Sequence record: MH252123.1
Source of the DNA: Klebsiella phage ZCKP1
Reading direction: 5' to 3' (one strand)
DNA: 64,000 nt
Shown here: piece by piece, positions 1 through 9,468 of the stretch
Numbering within the stretch: the stretch's first letter is position 1
Layout: every line of letters starts with the position of its first letter
The notes under the pieces: generated by a model
Database searches by the model: none
Told to the model about the DNA's origin: nothing
What the model saw: the letters and a program-made list of their open reading frames with translations, nothing else
Position numbers and translations under genes: made by a program

Positions 1-38
1 CAACCAACAACAACGATATCTTTTTTCATAATCCCTCC

Positions 39-365
39 TTAAGCGTTCAGTTCGTTGTTGAGTTCGTAAATCTCTTCTTGAAGAGCATCAATCTCTTCCT
101 CCAAACGGGAGATCTCTTCTTTTAGATATACCATTTCTGATTCTTTCTCTTCTAATTCATTTTCAAATTTTACTTTATTCGCCTCATTTTCATAATGCAG
201 TTCAGCGTAATCCTCACGCATTTGTTCAATAAGATGAATCAGAGATAAGATATAGTTATCCCCAGTTTCATCTCGCCACTCTTCCCCGTGGCGCAAGATT
301 GTGATTCGTCCAGTGTTTTCATCTAAAATTGTCTCATATTTACGATCATCTGTATAAATCTGCAT
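39..365 (-). CDS. hypothetical coiled-coil protein (early region)
   Basis: 108-aa ORF with E/L-rich heptad-like C-terminus; no recognisable catalytic motif. Confidence 0.4.
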   Translation of the reverse strand: MQIYTDDRKYETILDENTGRITILRHGEEWRDETGDNYILSLIHLIEQMREDYAELHYENEANKVKFENELEEKESEMVYLKEEISRLEEEIDALQEEIYELNNELNA

Positions 366-374
366 TATTACTCC

Positions 375-779
375 TTATTGAAGTTTAAGTGAACCACGAA
401 GACGTTTCTCTTGCTGATCACGAATATATTGTGGAACCTCGTGAATTGAATCATTACCGTGCCTATTTTCAACAACTAAAGAGATAACTTGATAACCAAA
501 CTCTTCAGCAAGAGTTAGATAAGGTTTAAGTTCTTTCTCTGTGGTTGAAGTGTTAGAAACAATAATCTTGTTAAGATTAGATGCCATAGCATCACGAACA
601 ATACTCTGACACCATGCGTGTGCTTTACCTACATTTTCTGGCTTCCAATCGTAAACACCACTTTCTGTGTAATGATATTGATCTGCCTCACAGATAGGCC
701 AATAACCTTCAGAAATAATTTCTGCTACCGTAGATTTACCAGCACCTGAAACGCCACGTAAAATGATAAGTTGTTTCAT
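375..779 (-). CDS. P-loop polynucleotide 5'-kinase-like protein (RNA repair)
   Basis: N-terminal Walker A ILRGVSGAGKST resembling the T4 Pnk kinase domain; ends 1 nt from the ligase gene. Confidence 0.6.
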   Translation of the reverse strand: MKQLIILRGVSGAGKSTVAEIISEGYWPICEADQYHYTESGVYDWKPENVGKAHAWCQSIVRDAMASNLNKIIVSNTSTTEKELKPYLTLAEEFGYQVISLVVENRHGNDSIHEVPQYIRDQQEKRLRGSLKLQ

Positions 780-1712
780 TTATCCTCCAAAGAAGTTTTC
801 GATTTTTTCACGTCGCTCCTGCTGATTTAAAGCAGCCCATTGAGTCTTCGTAAAATTATTTCGAATCCATTCTAACAAAGCGTAATATTCTTCGTCAACA
901 ATTTGTTTGGCATTTTTTGGATTATCCCAAATCAGATCCCACTTTTTATCTCCACCACGCATAAGAAACTTCTTAGTAAGATAGTGTGGTGATTTAATTT
1001 TTAAAAGTAAGTTGAACGGATAGTTTGTTTCACGAACTACAAACCCTTCGTGTTTACAATGTTTAGACATTTCAACAACATCTGAAAACTTAACCATTGG
1101 ATGAACTTCAGGACGCTTAAATTTGGTGACAGAAGCAATTCCATCAAGAGCACTTTCAGGTAACATAAAACTTGTCCCATCAGGATTTTGAATTCTGGCA
1201 CCAATTAAGTATGCACCTGGTTCTTCTTCGACAATATGCGGATCAGAAGGATCACAGATTTCAAACAGGAAAGTTGCTTTTGCACTCTCTGCCCATTTGA
1301 TGAAATGTTCTATGTCATCGCACTCTGAAACAATACGATTCTTTGCAATACTTGCAAAATCTGATTCAAGGCTTCCTGTTGTCGATACAATAAGTTGACC
1401 TTTATATACACCTACAGAGGCCATAAAACCATTTACTTTACGAACCACATCTACAAGTTCATCCGCTGGTAGATCTGTGTCATTCTCAAAACGATTAAAA
1501 ATCTTAGTGAAAGGCCAAATAACAACATTGTCATCAGCATCAACAACGATTCCGCGACATTCTAGAAGACGAGAATCAATGTTCCATAGGTTATCCCAGA
1601 AAACTTTGTTCTTATACTTAAGAACAGATAGACCAGAATACTCTCCTTCTTTATATGTTTTCTTATGAACTAAACCTTTTTCAACCAAATCGTCGCAATT
1701 AAATTTAGTCAC
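780..1712 (-). CDS. rnlA: RNA ligase, Rnl1 (T4 RnlA) family
   Basis: LECRGIVVD and KIFNRFEN match T4 RnlA ALECRGIMF and KFFNLNEN; VVRKVNGF fits nucleotidyltransferase motif I Kx(D/N)G. Confidence 0.6.
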   Translation of the reverse strand: MTKFNCDDLVEKGLVHKKTYKEGEYSGLSVLKYKNKVFWDNLWNIDSRLLECRGIVVDADDNVVIWPFTKIFNRFENDTDLPADELVDVVRKVNGFMASVGVYKGQLIVSTTGSLESDFASIAKNRIVSECDDIEHFIKWAESAKATFLFEICDPSDPHIVEEEPGAYLIGARIQNPDGTSFMLPESALDGIASVTKFKRPEVHPMVKFSDVVEMSKHCKHEGFVVRETNYPFNLLLKIKSPHYLTKKFLMRGGDKKWDLIWDNPKNAKQIVDEEYYALLEWIRNNFTKTQWAALNQQERREKIENFFGG

Positions 1713-1713
1713 A

Positions 1714-2265
1714 TTACTCTCCTTTGATTATTTTGTGATGGTCTACAGTTACGATATCTCGTTTACTCATCATAGAAATTATCTCATCAAAATGTAAGAT
1801 TTTTCCGTGTGCATCCCAACCCACATCTAACATTTTACCATAAGCTTCATCAGGGAAAGATCCGTGGGAATGCCCGTGTAGCATGATTGATCCACGACCT
1901 TGTTTATTCCAGGAGGCAATAGGGTAATGGCTTAAGACGAAGAACAGCTTCTGGTATTTCACTTCGTCATAATACACCACTTCGCCATACTCTGCAAGCA
2001 CTTCTCGGTGCTTGCTGTAATCATGGTTCCCAACAAGATAAGTGATATCTCCTTGCAGACGGGAAGCAATCTTACGGGTATCTTCTTCAGTCCCGAAACA
2101 GAAGTCGCCCAAATGCCACATCTTAACACCAGGAGTAGTAGCGCATTTATTCCATGCTTCGATCAGTGCTTCTGTCATGTGGTCCATATCTTCCCACGGT
2201 CGATATTCAGGAGCAAACTCTCGTATACGTTTGTGCATAAAATGCAAATCACTTGTAATAAACAT
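1714..2265 (-). CDS. calcineurin-like metallophosphoesterase (probable RNA-end 2',3'-cyclic phosphodiesterase/phosphatase)
   Basis: MPP motifs SDLHFMH, GDFCFG, GNHDY, HGHSH; tightly packed with the kinase and ligase genes. Confidence 0.65.
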   Translation of the reverse strand: MFITSDLHFMHKRIREFAPEYRPWEDMDHMTEALIEAWNKCATTPGVKMWHLGDFCFGTEEDTRKIASRLQGDITYLVGNHDYSKHREVLAEYGEVVYYDEVKYQKLFFVLSHYPIASWNKQGRGSIMLHGHSHGSFPDEAYGKMLDVGWDAHGKILHFDEIISMMSKRDIVTVDHHKIIKGE

Positions 2266-2621
2266 TAGTATAATCCCTCGCTAAATAGGTCACGATCATG
2301 ACCATTACGTTCGTAGTCAATCTGGTCTGCGTGTTTTGCAATAATGTATGCATCTTCACGACTCCACCAATTGTAGTATTGATCAATAAAACCTTGATTG
2401 TTTGGAAGACAATGCACTTTATCAAGCACACCTGCTTCTTTCAATACATTCAATTGTGCAGATAATACAGGATTTGCATGTCGAACACAAGGAATAATTA
2501 ACTCTTCACCATTATTCAAAATATACTTATTCGCAGCACAGACGATAACACGTTGCGCATAATGGCCCTCACCAATCCAGGTAAGAGGTTGGTAACAAAT
2601 GTTCTGATCAATACTACTCAT
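2265..2621 (-). CDS. hypothetical protein
   Basis: 118-aa ORF, start overlaps the upstream stop; conserved-looking Cys/His positions but no assignable family. Confidence 0.4.
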   Translation of the reverse strand: MSSIDQNICYQPLTWIGEGHYAQRVIVCAANKYILNNGEELIIPCVRHANPVLSAQLNVLKEAGVLDKVHCLPNNQGFIDQYYNWWSREDAYIIAKHADQIDYERNGHDRDLFSEGLY

Positions 2622-2632
2622 TAAGTTTCTCC

Positions 2633-2989
2633 TTAATAGTGCACACGAATCATTTTAATACCATAACGCAGCATGGATTCTTTTGCAAGCATGAATTTAT
2701 CCCCAGCGGCGGGATTAGAAGTATGCACGAAAATGGTAGGTGAACCAAAGCAAGGTTTACCAAACGCCAGAAGTTCTTCCAGGCACAGGAAAACATCATA
2801 CCCATCTTGGTCAGAATCTTCACCCAAATCGTTGTCAAAATGCCACTCATCTACAAAACGATAACCCTTCTGCACCTCATTCATGTAGCGAGAGGCAAGA
2901 AGTTCCTGTGATGTTTTAAACCAGATTGCATCTGGACAACCATAATCTTTTGGATCACGTAAATCGTCAAGCCAAATAATAGTACCCAT
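2633..2989 (-). CDS. receiver (Rec)-like domain protein
   Basis: IIWLDD near the N-terminus, acidic FDNDLGEDSDQDG about 50 aa later, HTSNP, then K: spacing resembles a phosphoacceptor receiver fold. Confidence 0.4.
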   Translation of the reverse strand: MGTIIWLDDLRDPKDYGCPDAIWFKTSQELLASRYMNEVQKGYRFVDEWHFDNDLGEDSDQDGYDVFLCLEELLAFGKPCFGSPTIFVHTSNPAAGDKFMLAKESMLRYGIKMIRVHY

Positions 2990-2999
2990 ATAACCTCCT

Positions 3000-3470
3000 C
3001 TAAGCTGGCATGATTAAAAAAGAACTCTCCACTTCAAAATGCCAATCATCTACAAGCCCTGATTCCCAATCCTTCTCTTCATGGAAAGAGCAAATCCAAC
3101 GGTACATACCTGGCGGTGTATTCTCAACATCTTCTGGCAACCCGTAATCCAAAGCTGTCAAACCGTTCTCTGTAAAACTAGGATGGAGATTAGGAGCTTT
3201 CAATACAGAAACCCTGCCTCCAACATCTACAGCCACAATCCACTCTGTCATGTATGGGCTGTCATATTGAGGTTCATCAGAACCTACCTCAACAGCCTCT
3301 GTGCGTAAGATGATAATAGCCTGCTCTGTGATTGGGGCTTTGACAATATACCCGTGATCCTCAAAAAGATCGATAACCTCAAACTCATCGCCGTTTTCGA
3401 CACCATAACTCTTATTCAAAGAGATAAACTTCGGGTTATCGTCGTAAGCTTTAGTTACTTTAATTCTCAT
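3000..3470 (-). CDS. hypothetical protein
   Basis: 156-aa ORF in the tightly packed minus-strand early operon. Confidence 0.4.
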   Translation of the reverse strand: MRIKVTKAYDDNPKFISLNKSYGVENGDEFEVIDLFEDHGYIVKAPITEQAIIILRTEAVEVGSDEPQYDSPYMTEWIVAVDVGGRVSVLKAPNLHPSFTENGLTALDYGLPEDVENTPPGMYRWICSFHEEKDWESGLVDDWHFEVESSFLIMPA

Positions 3471-3691
3471 TTTTCCTCCTTCACTTTAACCTCAAATTCT
3501 ACAGGCTTACCCTCAATGTAAAAACAATGATACTCTGCCTTATCATCCTCATAACGAGGCCAAGTTACCAAGGAGTTATAGCAATCTTCTGGTGCTTTGA
3601 AGATGGTTTTAGTCTCCACAGTAACATTCCCATTAAGTGTTGCCAATACCACCCACCCAGCTACAGTGATCATAGTGCCTCCACTTTCCAA
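3467..3691 (-). CDS. hypothetical small protein
   Basis: 74-aa ORF, start/stop overlap with neighbours. Confidence 0.3.
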   Translation of the reverse strand: MESGGTMITVAGWVVLATLNGNVTVETKTIFKAPEDCYNSLVTWPRYEDDKAEYHCFYIEGKPVEFEVKVKEEK

Positions 3692-6742: not shown

Positions 6743-6817
6743 GGCCCTGTAGCTCAATGGGAGAGCTGTCGGCTCATAACCGATAGGTAGCTGGATCGAA
6801 ACCAGCCAGGGCCACCA
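6743..6817 (+). tRNA. tRNA-Met (CAT); loop CTCATAA, three G/C pairs at base of anticodon stem
   Basis: acceptor GGCCCTG/CAGGGCC, D-arm GCTC...GAGC, T-loop ATCGAAA, CCA encoded. Confidence 0.75.
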
Positions 6818-6819
6818 AC

Positions 6820-6894
6820 GTCTTTATGGTGTAATGGATAGCACAGGAGTCTTCTAAACTCTTAGTCAAGGTTCGATTCCTTGTAAAGACACCA
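6820..6894 (+). tRNA. tRNA-Arg (TCT)
   Basis: acceptor GTCTTTA/TAAAGAC, anticodon loop CTTCTAA, T-loop TTCGATT, CCA encoded. Confidence 0.7.
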
Positions 6895-7090
6895 GAACAT
6901 TTTAACATGAATTAGCTCAAGTGATTTGAACACACTACTGATCATGGTGGTAGAGAATGAGGCAAGTATGTCAGACATTATAAACAAAGGCCACGGTTAT
7001 ATTAGAAGACATAAATGCTCGAAGAGCACCGTTCGTGGAGAACGGGGGTTGGTGGAGTCACCATTCATGGTAAAATGTTTTAAAAAACTA

Positions 7091-7120
7091 TTGACAACTA
7101 ACATTATTTTATGTTAGATT
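7091..7120 (+). promoter_or_regulatory. sigma70-type promoter (aactATTGACAA family)
   Basis: TTGACA 7091-7096, 17-nt spacer, TTAGAT; tRNA-Ser begins 9 nt downstream. Confidence 0.45.
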
Positions 7121-7128
7121 ATAAGTAT

Positions 7129-7219
7129 GGAAGGGCAAATCGACGTGGCGACGAAAACGGTCTTGAAAACCGCCGAGCTTGAAAGAGCCTTGGGAGTTCG
7201 ACTCTCCCTCCTTCCGCCA
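7129..7219 (+). tRNA. tRNA-Ser (TGA), type II
   Basis: acceptor GGAAGGG/TCCTTCC, loop CTTGAAA, long variable arm, T-loop TTCGACT, CCA encoded. Confidence 0.65.
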
Positions 7220-7223
7220 GATT

Positions 7224-7309
7224 GGTAGATTGGTGAAATGGTAGCCACGACAGTTTGCTAAACTGTAGTCGGAAACGGCGTGTAGGTTCGAGTCCTACAT
7301 CTACCGCCA
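7224..7309 (+). tRNA. tRNA-Ser (GCT), type II
   Basis: acceptor GGTAGAT/ATCTACC, anticodon stem ACAGT/ACTGT with loop TTGCTAA, long variable arm, CCA encoded. Confidence 0.65.
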
Positions 7310-7439
7310 AGTTCTTTTTAATATAGCTTACTTTAGCAGAGTAAATCTTCGGCAAGTGGCGGTAACCACTTTACCGATAACTCATAGTTAGTGGTGTGAA
7401 CACTGGCTATTTTAAAAAGAATTTAAATATTAGTATTTA

Positions 7440-7527
7440 GGTGAGTTAATTCCGTAGGGGTAGCGGGGCAGACTGTAAATCTGTTATCATTGCGATTCGG
7501 GTGGTTCGACTCCATCACTCACCACCA
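7440..7527 (+). tRNA. tRNA-Tyr (GTA), type II
   Basis: acceptor GGTGAGT/ACTCACC, loop CTGTAAA, long variable arm, T-loop TTCGACT, CCA encoded. Confidence 0.6.
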
Positions 7528-7533
7528 AATTAA

Positions 7534-7619
7534 GATGAGTTGGCTGAATGGTTTAAGCGGCGGACTGTTAATCCGTGTTCGAAAGAACGATATAGGTTCA
7601 AATCCTATACTCATCGCCA
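7534..7619 (+). tRNA. type II (long variable arm) tRNA with apparent GTT anticodon (identity uncertain)
   Basis: acceptor GATGAGT/ACTCATC, 3-bp D-stem GCT/AGC with large D-loop, anticodon stem GCGGA/TCCGT loop CTGTTAA, variable hairpin GTTC-GAAA-GAAC, T-loop TTCAAAT, CCA. Confidence 0.5.
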
Positions 7620-7626
7620 GAATTAT

Positions 7627-7704
7627 GGACTTGTAGAGTTAAGGTAAACCCCCCAGTCGCCAAGAGGCTTCTGAAATTGCAGGTATCGAATCCTGCCGAG
7701 TCCC
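7627..7704 (+). tRNA. irregular tRNA-like element (possible pseudo-tRNA; anticodon unassigned)
   Basis: acceptor GGACTTG/CGAGTCC and T-arm GCAGG-TATCGAAT-CCTGC (8-nt loop, canonical GGTTCGAATCC plus an extra A); no clean D or anticodon arm; no CCA. Confidence 0.3.
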
Positions 7705-7710
7705 AGCTTT

Positions 7711-7785
7711 GCTCCTATAGTATAATGGCTATTACAACGGTTTTGTAATCCGTGGATCTCTGTTCGATTCAGAGTGGGAGCACCA
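7711..7785 (+). tRNA. tRNA-Thr (TGT)
   Basis: acceptor GCTCCTA/TGGGAGC, loop TTTGTAA, T-loop TTCGATT, CCA encoded. Confidence 0.6.
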
Positions 7786-8138
7786 ACACAACATTAAGGG
7801 CACTGTGATTGATCGTCGTATCCTGTGCACAAGGTCTGTTCGAAAGACAGTGTTCTTAGTATTGTGTTGATCACAAAAAGAGTCACCTGAAACTTGACCG
7901 GAGTAGGGTTGGATGGGGCAAAAGAAGAAGCGGCTCTCCCATCGACAGCAACGAAGAATAATATTTGACTTTGGTTTTGTATTATTTTAAGTTAGCTTAC
8001 CGAACGTAGGGCTAGTCACCCAACGGGATACTCGTCACTGTCCCACTCAAAGAAAAGAAGAACCAAACTGTTAACGTTAAGAAAAAATTACCCTTAACTA
8101 ATCCATTTTATCACAAATGGATTTCATATGTCAATATG

Positions 8139-8163
8139 TTTGCGCGTTGCACAGCGCGCAAAA
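8139..8163. promoter_or_regulatory. perfect inverted repeat upstream of the HigA-like gene (candidate operator)
   Basis: TTGCGCG-ttgcacag-CGCGCAA about 25 nt upstream of the RBS of the 8186 ORF. Confidence 0.45.
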
Positions 8164-8185
8164 TCAGAGTATTTAGGAGGTTACA

Positions 8186-8526
8186 TGGTCACATTGCACA
8201 AACCTATGCACCCCGGCGAGTTTATCCGCGAAGTATATTTAGAGCCGTTAGAGCTTCAAATAGGAACGTTTGCAGAAAAGCTTGGTGTTGATACATCAAC
8301 CGTTAGCCGGTTAGTAAACCAAAAAGCTGACCTTTCTTATGAAATGGCATTACGCCTATCAAAAGCCTTAGGGCGTTCTGCTGACTCTTGGATGAAAATG
8401 CAAATAGCATATGGTTTATATCGTGCTCAAGATAAAGTAAATCTTGAAGAAGTTGAGGTGGTTTACTGCCCACGGAACTTGGATGCTCCTGAAAAACAGG
8501 TCCATGAATTTTATGAAAATATCTAA
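8186..8526 (+). CDS. HigA-like antitoxin / XRE-family HTH protein
   Basis: ATG at 8186 after GGAGG; HPGEFIREVYLEPL...TFAEKLGVDTSTVSRLVNQK...MALRLSKALG matches HigA/VapI signature; no toxin partner adjacent. Confidence 0.6.
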
Positions 8527-8702
8527 AAACGATATTTCATTTAGGTAAAGAAAAGCTACTAACCATAGGGGCTTTTTGTCTCTACACCTGTGTATTTATG
8601 TGAAGACCTAAGGCAGCATCGTTATTCCTGAAGATGCTTAAACAGCGGTCTTGTACACCCTGTTACCACGGTTCAGAAGTTCCCCAACTTACTGAACATT
8701 CG

Positions 8703-8731
8703 AAAAACCACCCCCCAGGTGGTTTTTCGTT
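8703..8731 (+). terminator. rho-independent terminator
   Basis: ACCACCCCCCAGGTGGT hairpin followed by TTTTTCGTTT. Confidence 0.6.
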
Positions 8732-8770
8732 TCAGGATTAAAGATACTCTGCGTCCCACTCAATAAAACT

Positions 8771-8800
8771 ATTGACAACCAATAGTAAAATGTAGTATAG
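8771..8800 (+). promoter_or_regulatory. sigma70-type promoter (aactATTGACAA family)
   Basis: TTGACA 8771-8776, 18-nt spacer, TATAGT 8795-8800; tRNA-Gly starts at 8813. Confidence 0.55.
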
Positions 8801-8812
8801 TAAAGATATAGG

Positions 8813-8886
8813 GCGTTCTTGGTGTAGCGGTAGCATTCCGTCCTTCCAAGTCGGCGGCACGAGTTCGATCCTCGTAGAACGCTCCA
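8813..8886 (+). tRNA. tRNA-Gly (TCC)
   Basis: acceptor GCGTTCT/AGAACGC, discriminator T, loop CTTCCAA, T-arm ACGAG-TTCGATC-CTCGT, CCA encoded; one T.T mismatch in anticodon stem. Confidence 0.5.
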
Positions 8887-8964
8887 AATTATTTAATAAA
8901 GGGTTGCCAGAAAACTTTCTCTTTTACTCATGGTTTTCTCCTTCTCTCACACCTCTTCTGGTTG

Positions 8965-9040
8965 CCCTTCATTAAATGATTTATTGGTTTGTAGTGTAGT
9001 CAGGTAGCACACGACACTTTGACTGTCGTAGGTTTGGTTC
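8965..9040 (+). tRNA. tRNA-Gln (TTG), U1:A72
   Basis: acceptor TGGTTTG/CAGACCA, anticodon stem CGACA/TGTCG loop CTTTGAC, T-loop TTCAAAT, CCA encoded. Confidence 0.6.
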
Positions 9041-9154
9041 AAATCCAGACAGACCAGCCATATAACAAAGGTGAGTCACTACCTCAAGTGTGAAGTTAAA
9101 AAACGAGGAGCCGCCGAACACTTTCTTTTGCGGTGTACCTTTAGAATGTTATGA

Positions 9155-9231
9155 CGGAATTTAGCTCAGTTTGGTAGAGTGTACGCTTTGGGAGCGTATT
9201 GTCGCAGGTTCGAATCCTGCAATTCCGACCA
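9155..9231 (+). tRNA. tRNA-Pro (TGG)
   Basis: acceptor CGGAATT/AATTCCG, D-arm GCTC-AGTTTGGTA-GAGT, anticodon stem TACGC/GCGTA loop TTTGGGA, T-loop TTCGAAT, CCA. Confidence 0.7.
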
Positions 9232-9237
9232 ATTAAA

Positions 9238-9311
9238 TGTTTCGTAGTTCAATGGTAGAACCCACGACTGATAATCGTGAGATACAAGTTCGATTCTTGT
9301 CGAAACAACCA
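9238..9311 (+). tRNA. tRNA-Ile (GAT)
   Basis: acceptor TGTTTCG/CGAAACA, D-arm GTTC-AATGGTA-GAAC, anticodon stem CACGA/TCGTG loop CTGATAA, CCA encoded. Confidence 0.7.
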
Positions 9312-9312
9312 G

Positions 9313-9389
9313 TTTCCCGTTAGACTTACAGGATAAGAGTTCCACAGCTTATTGTGATGCTGGTTCGAATCCAGCACGGGATACCTAAT
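9313..9389 (+). tRNA. tRNA-like element with canonical T-arm but unresolved anticodon arm
   Basis: T-arm GCTGG-TTCGAAT-CCAGC and acceptor 3' ACGGGAT vs 5' TTCCCGT (1-72 mismatch); no clean 5/7/5 anticodon arm; no CCA. Confidence 0.3.
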
Positions 9390-9468
9390 AGCGGGATAGA
9401 GGAGTCTGGTCGTCCTCGCCAGTTTCATATGCTGGAGATCATCGGTTCAAATCCGATTCCCGCCTCCA
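9390..9468 (+). tRNA. tRNA-Met (CAT), second copy, A1.C72 mismatch
   Basis: acceptor AGCGGGA/TCCCGCC, D-arm GAGG...CCTC, anticodon stem CCAGT/GCTGG loop TTCATAT, T-loop TTCAAAT, disc T, CCA. Confidence 0.6.

Follow-up and report, generated by a model that had tools for sequence, protein, structure and literature searches.

A predicted split RNA heal-and-seal cassette in Klebsiella phage ZCKP1 and its relatives

Host defenses that cleave tRNAs are increasingly recognized and include PrrC, RloC, PARIS, retron-associated nucleases, Schlafen-type proteins, and Cas-associated tRNases. Among phage countermeasures based on repair, only the pair of Pnkp (PseT) and Rnl1 (gp63) of phage T4 has been established by experiment. 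Bacterial Pnkp is a single polypeptide with its own ligase domain that works together with Hen1. In the C. thermocellum enzyme (CthPnkp), a P-loop kinase is combined with a calcineurin-type phosphoesterase, and tRNA ends healed by this enzyme can be sealed by T4 Rnl1 in vitro (PMC1920235). Comparable gene neighborhoods of phages have already been predicted computationally by Iyer et al. in 2021 (PMC7824862) and 2022 (PMC9503650) and in a 2025 paper on Pakpunavirus phages (PMC12846349). Here, we describe a cassette of minus-strand genes within a stretch of 64,000 nucleotides from Klebsiella phage ZCKP1 (MH252123.1; hereafter, the window) that encodes a P-loop kinase, an Rnl1-type RNA ligase, and a binuclear metallophosphoesterase (MPE). 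With a probability of about 70%, we consider this cassette a split phage RNA break-repair ("heal-and-seal") module whose likeliest substrates are host or phage tRNAs whose anticodon loop has been cleaved by abortive-infection nucleases and which would hence act in counter-defense. The family assignments, the intact catalytic motifs, the conserved linkage of the genes, and a gene fusion are what we observed, and from these we infer which activities the enzymes have, in what order they act, and what their substrate and biological role are.

An earlier note made from the sequence alone had listed a kinase, a ligase, a phosphoesterase, and a receiver-like protein on the minus strand and had read the first three as repair activities spread over separate small genes. 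All four open reading frames (ORFs) with the motifs that it quoted are present where it placed them, the three enzymes are indeed encoded separately (Table 1), and each of them matched the family to which it had been assigned. The note overlooked a fifth gene of the T4_Y16D family (ORF4), and its "receiver-like protein", correctly recognized as having a receiver fold, can be named more exactly as a member of the cREC family (PF20274).

The ligase carries the motifs LLECRGIVV and RKVNGF and matches Pfam family RNA_lig_T4_1 (1.1e-15; 58.5 bits against a cut-off of 28.3) as well as PHROG 562 (1.9e-70), and it stays below the cut-off of the NCBIfam equivalog for T4 RnlA (TIGR02308; 27 versus 242 bits). 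Its only relatives in the PDB are entries of T4 Rnl1, which the single sequence reached with an E value of 0.07 over the N-terminal part and which a four-sequence profile reached with 2.9e-11 over the whole nucleotidyltransferase domain (2c5u). This profile joins the window protein to homologs from rV5-like phages, Pakpunavirus, and a T5-like Vibrio phage that are 37-49% identical to it (by tblastn or alignment). The alignment bears out the motif I lysine, with an invariant K92 (KxNGF) that corresponds to K99 of T4 Rnl1. E51, R53, and G54 of LLECRGI (residues 49-55) are equally invariant, R53 being the equivalent of T4 R54, and the same holds for E151 of motif III (FEIC; T4 E159), E222-G223 of motif IV (EGY/F; T4 E227-G228), and K238, K240, and Y244 of motif V (KIKSPHY; T4 K240, K242, and Y246). 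Beyond the part that aligns with 2c5u, around 55 residues follow with invariant positions of their own (D273-E274-E275 and R300-R301). We regard this protein as an Rnl1-family RNA ligase with predicted sealing activity and not as a strict ortholog of T4 RnlA.

The kinase displays the P-loop motif GVSGAGKST and matches AAA_33 of Pfam (4.1e-10; 40.5 bits, cut-off 27), PHROG 2071 (2.6e-56), and PHROG 505, named "polynucleotide kinase" (1.7e-8). As a single sequence it found only P-loop matches in the PDB. The best long match of a family profile built from 29 diverse homologs is the kinase domain of CthPnkp (4gp7; 1.1e-6 over profile positions 4-131), and matches spanning most of the profile also comprise L-seryl-tRNA(Sec) kinase (PSTK), Capnocytophaga Pnkp1, and T4 Pnk (1ltq; 2.6e-5, positions 2-100). 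Mammalian PNKP is matched at positions 44-105, while adenylate, gluconate, and nicotinamide riboside kinases align over the P-loop region alone. Among the top matches is also RazKIN (9d8a), a stand-alone fungal RNA 5'-OH kinase (PMC11571804). R8, G9, G12, G14, K15, and D33 are invariant across the family, and D33 aligns with the catalytic aspartate ("SSDF") of CthPnkp. The protein can thus be placed in the polynucleotide-kinase clade of P-loop kinases, with 5'-OH phosphorylation as its predicted activity.

For the MPE, superfamily membership follows from its motifs (SDLHF, GNHD, and HGHSHG), from PHROG 547 "phosphoesterase" (1.2e-55), and from a solved homolog, the uncharacterized Aquifex protein aq_1665 (1xm7), rather than from its Pfam score: where the kinase and the ligase exceeded the cut-offs of the families foreseen in the earlier note, the MPE fell below the gathering score of Metallophos_2 (1.2e-4; 22.6 versus 27 bits). 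Structure 1xm7 is its closest solved relative both with the single sequence (2.4e-6) and with a family profile (2e-23), and GpdQ (2e-4), 6unc, and 3ck2 are further matches of this profile. Over 33 diverse homologs, H8, H11, R22, G53-D54, G79-N80-H81, H113, W119, and G131-H132-x-H134 are invariant and D6 is nearly so. The family therefore retains all five binuclear-metal motifs (D6-x-H8, G53-D54, G79-N80-H81, H113, and G131-H132-x-H134), to which H11, R22, and W119 add conserved residues specific to it. We rejected a Pnkp- or lambda-phosphatase-like identity of the MPE because its profile matches the aq_1665 clade and no PDB structure of either kind at E<=0.1, so the earlier likening to bacterial Pnkp holds for superfamily and chemistry and fails for the family. 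As a member of the aq_1665 clade of binuclear metallophosphoesterases, the protein is predicted to heal 3' ends. In Listeria phage LP-064 (L093, 1-4564), an annotated RNA ligase is followed 1 kb downstream by an MPE homolog, and the same gene row also includes an RtcB-like ligase, a DUF1768 protein, and a "tRNA amidotransferase", which is an independent tie of this clade to RNA repair genes in Herelleviridae.

Independent support for a joint function of these enzymes comes from their linkage across phages. We surveyed 85 ligase loci, comprising 80 from IMG/VR (ligase 37-87% identical, with flanks of 8 kb to either side) and additional annotated phage loci, by running iterated profiles of the individual window proteins against all ORFs and dereplicating the loci at 50% ligase identity, which left 20 clusters. 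The kinase was present in 80 loci and in every cluster, and the MPE in 69 loci and 18 of the 20 clusters. By comparison, cREC (14 loci) and ORF4 (6 loci) each occur in 2 clusters, and among control genes of this region the DNA ligase occurs in 7 and MazG and Sir2 in 2 clusters each. Separated from the ligase by a median of 11 bp, the kinase lies closer to it than the MPE (ca. 400 bp) and the DNA ligase (1.8 kb). At least four gene orders were observed (MPE-ligase-kinase, kinase-ligase-MPE, ligase-kinase-MPE, and ligase-MPE-kinase), and this variation among lineages indicates that proximity has been kept by selection and not by shared ancestry alone. At 13 loci, kinase and ligase are even fused, with AAA_33 (residues 16-115) preceding RNA_lig_T4_1 (residues 184-367) in a single polypeptide. 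This fusion of ca. 430 amino acids (e.g., L046:7536-8834) marks a clade of uncultivated phages (L041, L043, L045-L052, L054, and L056-L058); no aq_1665-type MPE was found within the fetched flanks of the loci of this clade, nor any other phosphatase family among eight other large ORFs scanned in L046.

Phage records tell the same story, with the ligase in 698 and the kinase in 620 of 50,697 records and nearly identical genus profiles (ligase/kinase: Escherichia 199/198, Pseudomonas 175/173, Klebsiella 34/34, Acinetobacter 24/24, Campylobacter 23/23). The constant core consists of the ligase, the kinase, and the aq_1665-type MPE; cREC and Sir2 are variable parts, and cREC and ORF4 are lineage-specific extras. 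This constant triad, the variability of cREC and Sir2, and the natural kinase-ligase fusions are what our survey adds to previous predictions. The retention of three genes in shuffled order across 20 divergent ligase clusters, together with the fusions, supports their functional linkage.

In the heal-and-seal module that we propose, the P-loop kinase would convert the 5'-OH end of a broken RNA into a 5'-PO4 end, and the MPE would remove the 2',3'-cyclic or 3'-phosphate to leave a 3'-OH. The Rnl1-type ligase, adenylylated on K92, would then pass AMP to the 5'-phosphate and seal the nick. The cREC protein may serve as a lineage-specific helper that opens the cyclic phosphate ahead of the MPE, and the T4_Y16D-family protein would stand outside the core.

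Several observations weigh against this proposal or complicate it. The ligase does not have most of the C-terminal domain of its T4 counterpart, and the alignment with 2c5u ends at T4 residue 270 of 374. In T4 Rnl1, this all-helical C-terminal domain (residues ca. 255-374) confers tRNA specificity. The weakest point of the kinase assignment is the lid arginine, R106 ("ENRHG"), which is present in the window protein and replaced in many homologs, though an invariant histidine (H113 in "SIHxVP") may act as a substitute. No structure of lambda phosphatase or of the phosphatase of Pnkp in the PDB was matched by the MPE profile at E<=0.1. With 1,361 phage records, including Herelleviridae, the MPE is moreover around twice as frequent as the ligase, and a Kayvirus locus carries it without an annotated RNA ligase nearby, so its substrate may be broader. 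The cassette is located in a general nucleic-acid-metabolism region, with an ATP-dependent DNA ligase and MazG adjacent in relatives, and about half of the related loci have genes resembling those of NAD+ reconstitution within 8 kb; the neighborhood alone is therefore not specific. The literature that we searched contained no biochemical characterization of the kinase family, the aq_1665-like MPE clade, or cREC, and for the ligase, kinase, and MPE families in phAPEC8-like, rV5-like, and PAK_P1-like phages it offered computational statements only.

The genes of the cassette could also be read along the lines of the NAD+/ADP-ribose-centered systems modeled by the Aravind group, with cREC, MPE, and kinase mainly processing small molecules derived from ADP-ribose or cyclic nucleotides (ADPr>p from sirtuin or KptA-like removal of 2'-phosphates, or host immune signals) and RNA ligation as one arm. 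Sir2 and MazG do lie directly beside ligase, cREC, and kinase in rV5-like phages as well as Klebsiella and Salmonella phages, an arrangement described as an NAD+-utilizing RNA-repair neighborhood in a study that also reports frequent cREC-Nudix fusions (PMC9503650). Of the 85 loci, 39 have an Adps-like and 44 a Namat-like gene (NARP1-type) no more than 8 kb from the ligase, the loci of PaoP5 and Ceto being among them, and the kinase profile has a weak match to nicotinamide riboside kinase that is confined to the P-loop region (2qg6; 3.6e-4). We nevertheless consider such a system unlikely here. Homologs of Sir2, Adps, and Namat were not found in the window, and in the three phAPEC8-like genomes for which both positions are listed the Sir2 homolog is at least 30 kb away from the cassette. 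Neither Sir2 nor cREC approaches the near-constant association of kinase and MPE with the ligase (2 clusters each versus 20 and 18 of 20), the fusions join the kinase to the ligase and not to an NAD enzyme, and the full-length structural relatives of the kinase are polynucleotide kinases.

That kinase and MPE instead clean 5'-OH and 3'-phosphate ends of DNA for the neighboring ATP-dependent DNA ligase, like mammalian PNKP or the bacterial ligase-associated PdeM, with the RNA ligase being incidental, seems less probable still. Relatives have the DNA ligase gene ca. 0.75 kb past the kinase, 48 of the 85 loci contain it within 8 kb, and kinases of the polynucleotide-kinase clade including T4 Pnk and MciKIN also phosphorylate DNA (PMC11571804). 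However, this gene is present in only 7 of 20 clusters at a median distance far exceeding the 11 bp of the kinase (1.8 kb), the kinase is fused to the RNA ligase, and the match of the MPE to the NCBIfam family "ligase-associated DNA damage response endonuclease PdeM" (E 0.003) scores 17 bits, far under the cut-off of 150. We see hardly any room for a role in virion assembly, with the ligase mainly a T4 gp63-like catalyst of tail fiber attachment and the kinase and phosphoesterase unrelated enzymes of nucleotide salvage. This idea draws on the name "RNA ligase and tail fiber protein attachment catalyst", which PHROG 562 and many GenBank records bear and which was transferred from T4 gp63. The invariance of catalytic ligase residues in four divergent sequences argues for selection on ligase chemistry, the ligase family spans phages whose tails differ widely (several families of myoviruses as well as T5-like siphoviruses, e.g., Vibrio phage Ceto), and the tight linkage and fusion to the kinase would be left unexplained.

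Beyond the proposed repair module as such, the ligase, the kinase, and the aq_1665-type MPE might represent a third, widespread route of RNA end healing and sealing in which a new clade of small MPEs heals 3' ends and cREC assists in phAPEC8-like and rV5-like lineages. We put this forward tentatively, as a possibility that is rather doubtful at present. If true, cREC would be the first receiver-fold enzyme shown to hydrolyze RNA 2',3'-cyclic phosphates, and ORF4 could be a further factor acting on RNA ends or tRNAs. Irrespective of this broader reading, the predicted module is a modular solution different from that of T4, and its ligase is encoded by ca. 700 sequenced phages, whose hosts include Escherichia, Pseudomonas, Vibrio, Klebsiella, and Acinetobacter; several of these phages are therapeutic candidates. 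Should the module prove to work, it would account in part for their host range, give functions to the MPE clade and cREC, and provide compact stand-alone tools for end healing. Since comparative genomics has already flagged the module, it will not surprise specialists, and its value lies in being a well-defined experimental target.

The two lineage-specific genes of the cassette differ in how much can be said about them. The cREC protein scores well above the threshold of its family profile (cREC_REC, "cyclic-phosphate processing receiver domain", PF20274; 1.6e-13, 51.6 bits, cut-off 27), matches a PHROG (5.4e-29), and has the receiver (CheY-like) fold. Its invariant residues form an acidic pocket of D8 and D9 after strand 1 and D52 after strand 3 and further include H89, S91, N92, and P93. 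It stands alone in a phage RNA-ligase neighborhood without a histidine-kinase partner, and as a single query it retrieved one close relative only. The Aravind group, who defined the domain, predicted it to resolve 2',3'-cyclic phosphates or ADPr>p (PMC7824862, PMC9503650), noted the linkage of its genes to RNA ligases (PMC7824862), and described it as often fused to Nudix and experimentally uncharacterized (PMC9503650).

ORF4 matches a PHROG (5e-47) and belongs to PF26092 (T4_Y16D) according to precomputed annotations of its homologs. It found no match among NCBIfam families and PDB sequences, and the missing Pfam match is uninformative and no evidence of novelty, given that ten clear members of the family also score nothing. 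Its structure model is confident and has no solved structural relative. An exhaustive profile search yielded 4,432 representatives, none with an informative domain fusion; one is fused to an RNA polymerase alpha-CTD-like domain. The contexts of distant homologs are mixed, with an Rnl2-type ligase next to one of them, a Metallophos gene, NAMPT, and HAD_SAK_2 in the vicinity of another, and a T4-like region around a third. With no functional clue from fusions or distant contexts, we rejected ORF4 as a component of the cassette proper.

We also rejected Sir2 as part of the cassette of the window, which has no homolog within its 64 kb. The Sir2 protein of phage JES2013 (L004:6271-7032), encoded next to ligase and cREC as in other rV5-like phages, has homologs of 46-57% identity in T5-like and phAPEC8-like phages, and in the phAPEC8-like phage WPEC1 the cassette is found at 33-37 kb and Sir2 at 99 kb. 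Genes for Adps (ribose-phosphate pyrophosphokinase-like) and Namat (NAMPT-like) of NAD+ reconstitution pathway 1 are present at the loci of PaoP5 (L005) and Ceto (L006), at L007-L011 and L015, and at around 30 others, which suggests a recurrent anti-defense island joining RNA repair and NAD+ rescue.

All five genes are tightly packed on the minus strand with intergenic gaps of -1 to 11 nt (Table 1). No terminator-like site was found on this strand between positions ~5300 and 1, so the cassette appears to be part of a long leftward gene array and fits a single transcription unit; promoter-like sites are not enriched (23 versus a shuffled expectation of 19.4 +/- 4.2). The tRNA array that the earlier note had placed 4 kb away is indeed near, beginning at a distance of 3.75 kb, and is encoded on the opposite strand. 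Between tRNA-Ser and tRNA-Asn, an eleventh tRNA-like sequence exceeds the Rfam gathering score of 29 bits without being called by ARAGORN and may be a degenerate or unusual long-arm tRNA.

Table 1. Coordinates of the cassette and of features in the neighboring tRNA array of the window.
Feature	Position	Strand	Length	Basis or remark
P-loop kinase, predicted RNA/polynucleotide 5'-OH kinase	375-779	-	134 amino acids	AAA_33, PHROG, structure profile
Rnl1-family ATP-dependent RNA ligase, short C-terminal module	780-1712	-	310 amino acids	RNA_lig_T4_1, PHROG 562, T4 Rnl1 alignment
Binuclear metallophosphoesterase (MPE), predicted 3'-end healing enzyme (2',3'-cyclic phosphodiesterase / 3'-phosphatase)	1714-2265	-	183 amino acids	motifs, PHROG 547, 1xm7
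ORF4, T4_Y16D-family protein	2265-2621	-	118 amino acids	PF26092; lineage-specific passenger or accessory
cREC protein, divergent receiver-fold domain	2633-2989	-	118 amino acids	cREC_REC / PF20274
tRNA array (10 genes)	6743-9468	+		ARAGORN
tRNA-like sequence	7440-7524	+		Rfam, 39 bits
tRNA-Thr	7711-7785	+		
Repeat GTCCCACTCAA, first copy	8040-8050			flanks plasmid-like insert
Plasmid-like insert	8051-8763	+	~712 bp	97.5% identity to small ColE1-type plasmids
HigA-family antitoxin gene, intact	8128-8526			HTH_3, 2.3e-8
RNAI-like element	8629-8730			Rfam RF00106, 63 bits
Repeat GTCCCACTCAA, second copy	8753-8763			flanks plasmid-like insert
tRNA-Gly	8813-8886	+		

A megablast search with positions 1-3500 of the window matched 120 phage records, 55 of them over the full length, with the best matches being Phapecoctavirus (phAPEC8-like, Stephanstirmvirinae) coliphages of ca. 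150 kb at 96-98% identity, which identifies the window as Phapecoctavirus DNA. More than 100 cassettes nearly identical to that of the window are already found in GenBank. Their genes are annotated, in cassette order, as "ATPase", "RNA ligase (and tail fiber attachment catalyst)", "phosphoesterase", "hypothetical" or "anti-restriction nuclease", and "putative RNA ligase and tail attachment protein", and several of these names were transferred automatically. Many close relatives have an additional ORF of 144 bp (47 amino acids) between the T4_Y16D-family gene and cREC (L001:9628-9771), which is absent from the window (at ~2621-2633) and from phages DE16, SF1-1, and EF1-1; its absence from the window accounts for a length difference of 148 bp among the megablast matches.

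The tRNA array itself is interrupted between tRNA-Thr and tRNA-Gly by an insert resembling small ColE1-type plasmids of E. coli and Citrobacter (e.g., NZ_CP104687.1). It corresponds to plasmid positions 791-1387 joined to positions 134-257 at a CAGCGG microhomology and carries the antitoxin gene and RNAI-like element listed in Table 1; the RelE/ParE toxin gene of the plasmid is absent. The 11-nt sequence GTCCCACTCAA that flanks the insert in the phage is also present in the plasmid. None of 71 matching phage records has this insert, which could be a captured orphan antitoxin serving in counter-defense or an assembly chimera.

Among the systems to which the cassette can be compared, the T4 Pnkp and Rnl1 pathway against PrrC shares the same three predicted chemistries, the same ligase family, and a kinase of the same P-loop clade as T4 Pnk, and the cassette is likewise encoded by a phage in proximity to phage tRNA genes. 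Unlike T4, where the kinase is fused to a HAD-family 3'-phosphatase, the cassette combines a kinase on its own with a separate binuclear MPE. Its ligase is 64 amino acids shorter, devoid of most of the T4 C-terminal domain, and far from the score of a T4 RnlA equivalog, and the T4 pathway has nothing equivalent to its cREC and T4_Y16D genes. The fungal Trl1 and split Mucorales tRNA-splicing enzymes resemble the cassette in their heal-and-seal logic, an Rnl1-clade ligase, and the distribution of activities over stand-alone proteins (PMC11571804). The fungal pathway differs in using a 2H cyclic phosphodiesterase and leaving a 2'-PO4 for Tpt1, whereas the cassette has neither a 2H domain nor Tpt1, and structures of the Trl1 LIG domain were not matched by the ligase profile at E<=0.1.

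Among phages, the type 2 sirtuin-linked neighborhood of Escherichia phage V5 and Proteus phage Mydo described by Iyer et al. (PMC9503650) comprises a T4-like tRNA ligase, cREC, a "nucleotide kinase", nearby MazG, and a calcineurin-like phosphoesterase, and the rV5-like locus in our survey (L004) indeed contains clear homologs of four window proteins (ligase, kinase, MPE, and cREC). In the window and in phAPEC8-like phages, by contrast, Sir2 lies outside the cassette and a T4_Y16D gene separates MPE and cREC. The phosphoesterase, moreover, is "occasional" in that description and near-constant in our survey, where cREC and Sir2 are the occasional ones. For Pakpunavirus phage Adele, tRNA repair by a polynucleotide 5'-kinase without 3'-phosphatase domain and an RNA ligase (PaAdele_025/026) has been proposed, leaving a nearby phosphoesterase unconnected to the pathway (PMC12846349). 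In PaoP5 of the same genus, we found a ligase 37% identical to that of the window beside a 138-amino-acid kinase homolog and an MPE 1 kb upstream, with ligase and kinase positioned as in Adele; Pakpunavirus phages differ from the cassette by having neither cREC nor T4_Y16D at this locus and by their adjacent NARP1 genes.

The comparison with bacterial Pnkp (CthPnkp and Pnkp-Hen1) points in the same direction as that with T4. Both combine a P-loop 5'-kinase with a calcineurin-superfamily phosphoesterase, and the CthPnkp kinase domain is the best full-length relative of the phage kinase. The cassette is nevertheless split into three separate ORFs with an Rnl1-type ligase, its relatives show fusions of kinase and ligase only, its MPE is of the aq_1665 clade and not of the lambda-phosphatase clade, and no methyltransferase family that would indicate Hen1 was matched in the seven ORFs at 39-3470 or among the annotated neighbors in relatives. 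Taken together, these comparisons support a module that would work like T4 Pnkp and Rnl1 and like bacterial Pnkp while being a member of neither.

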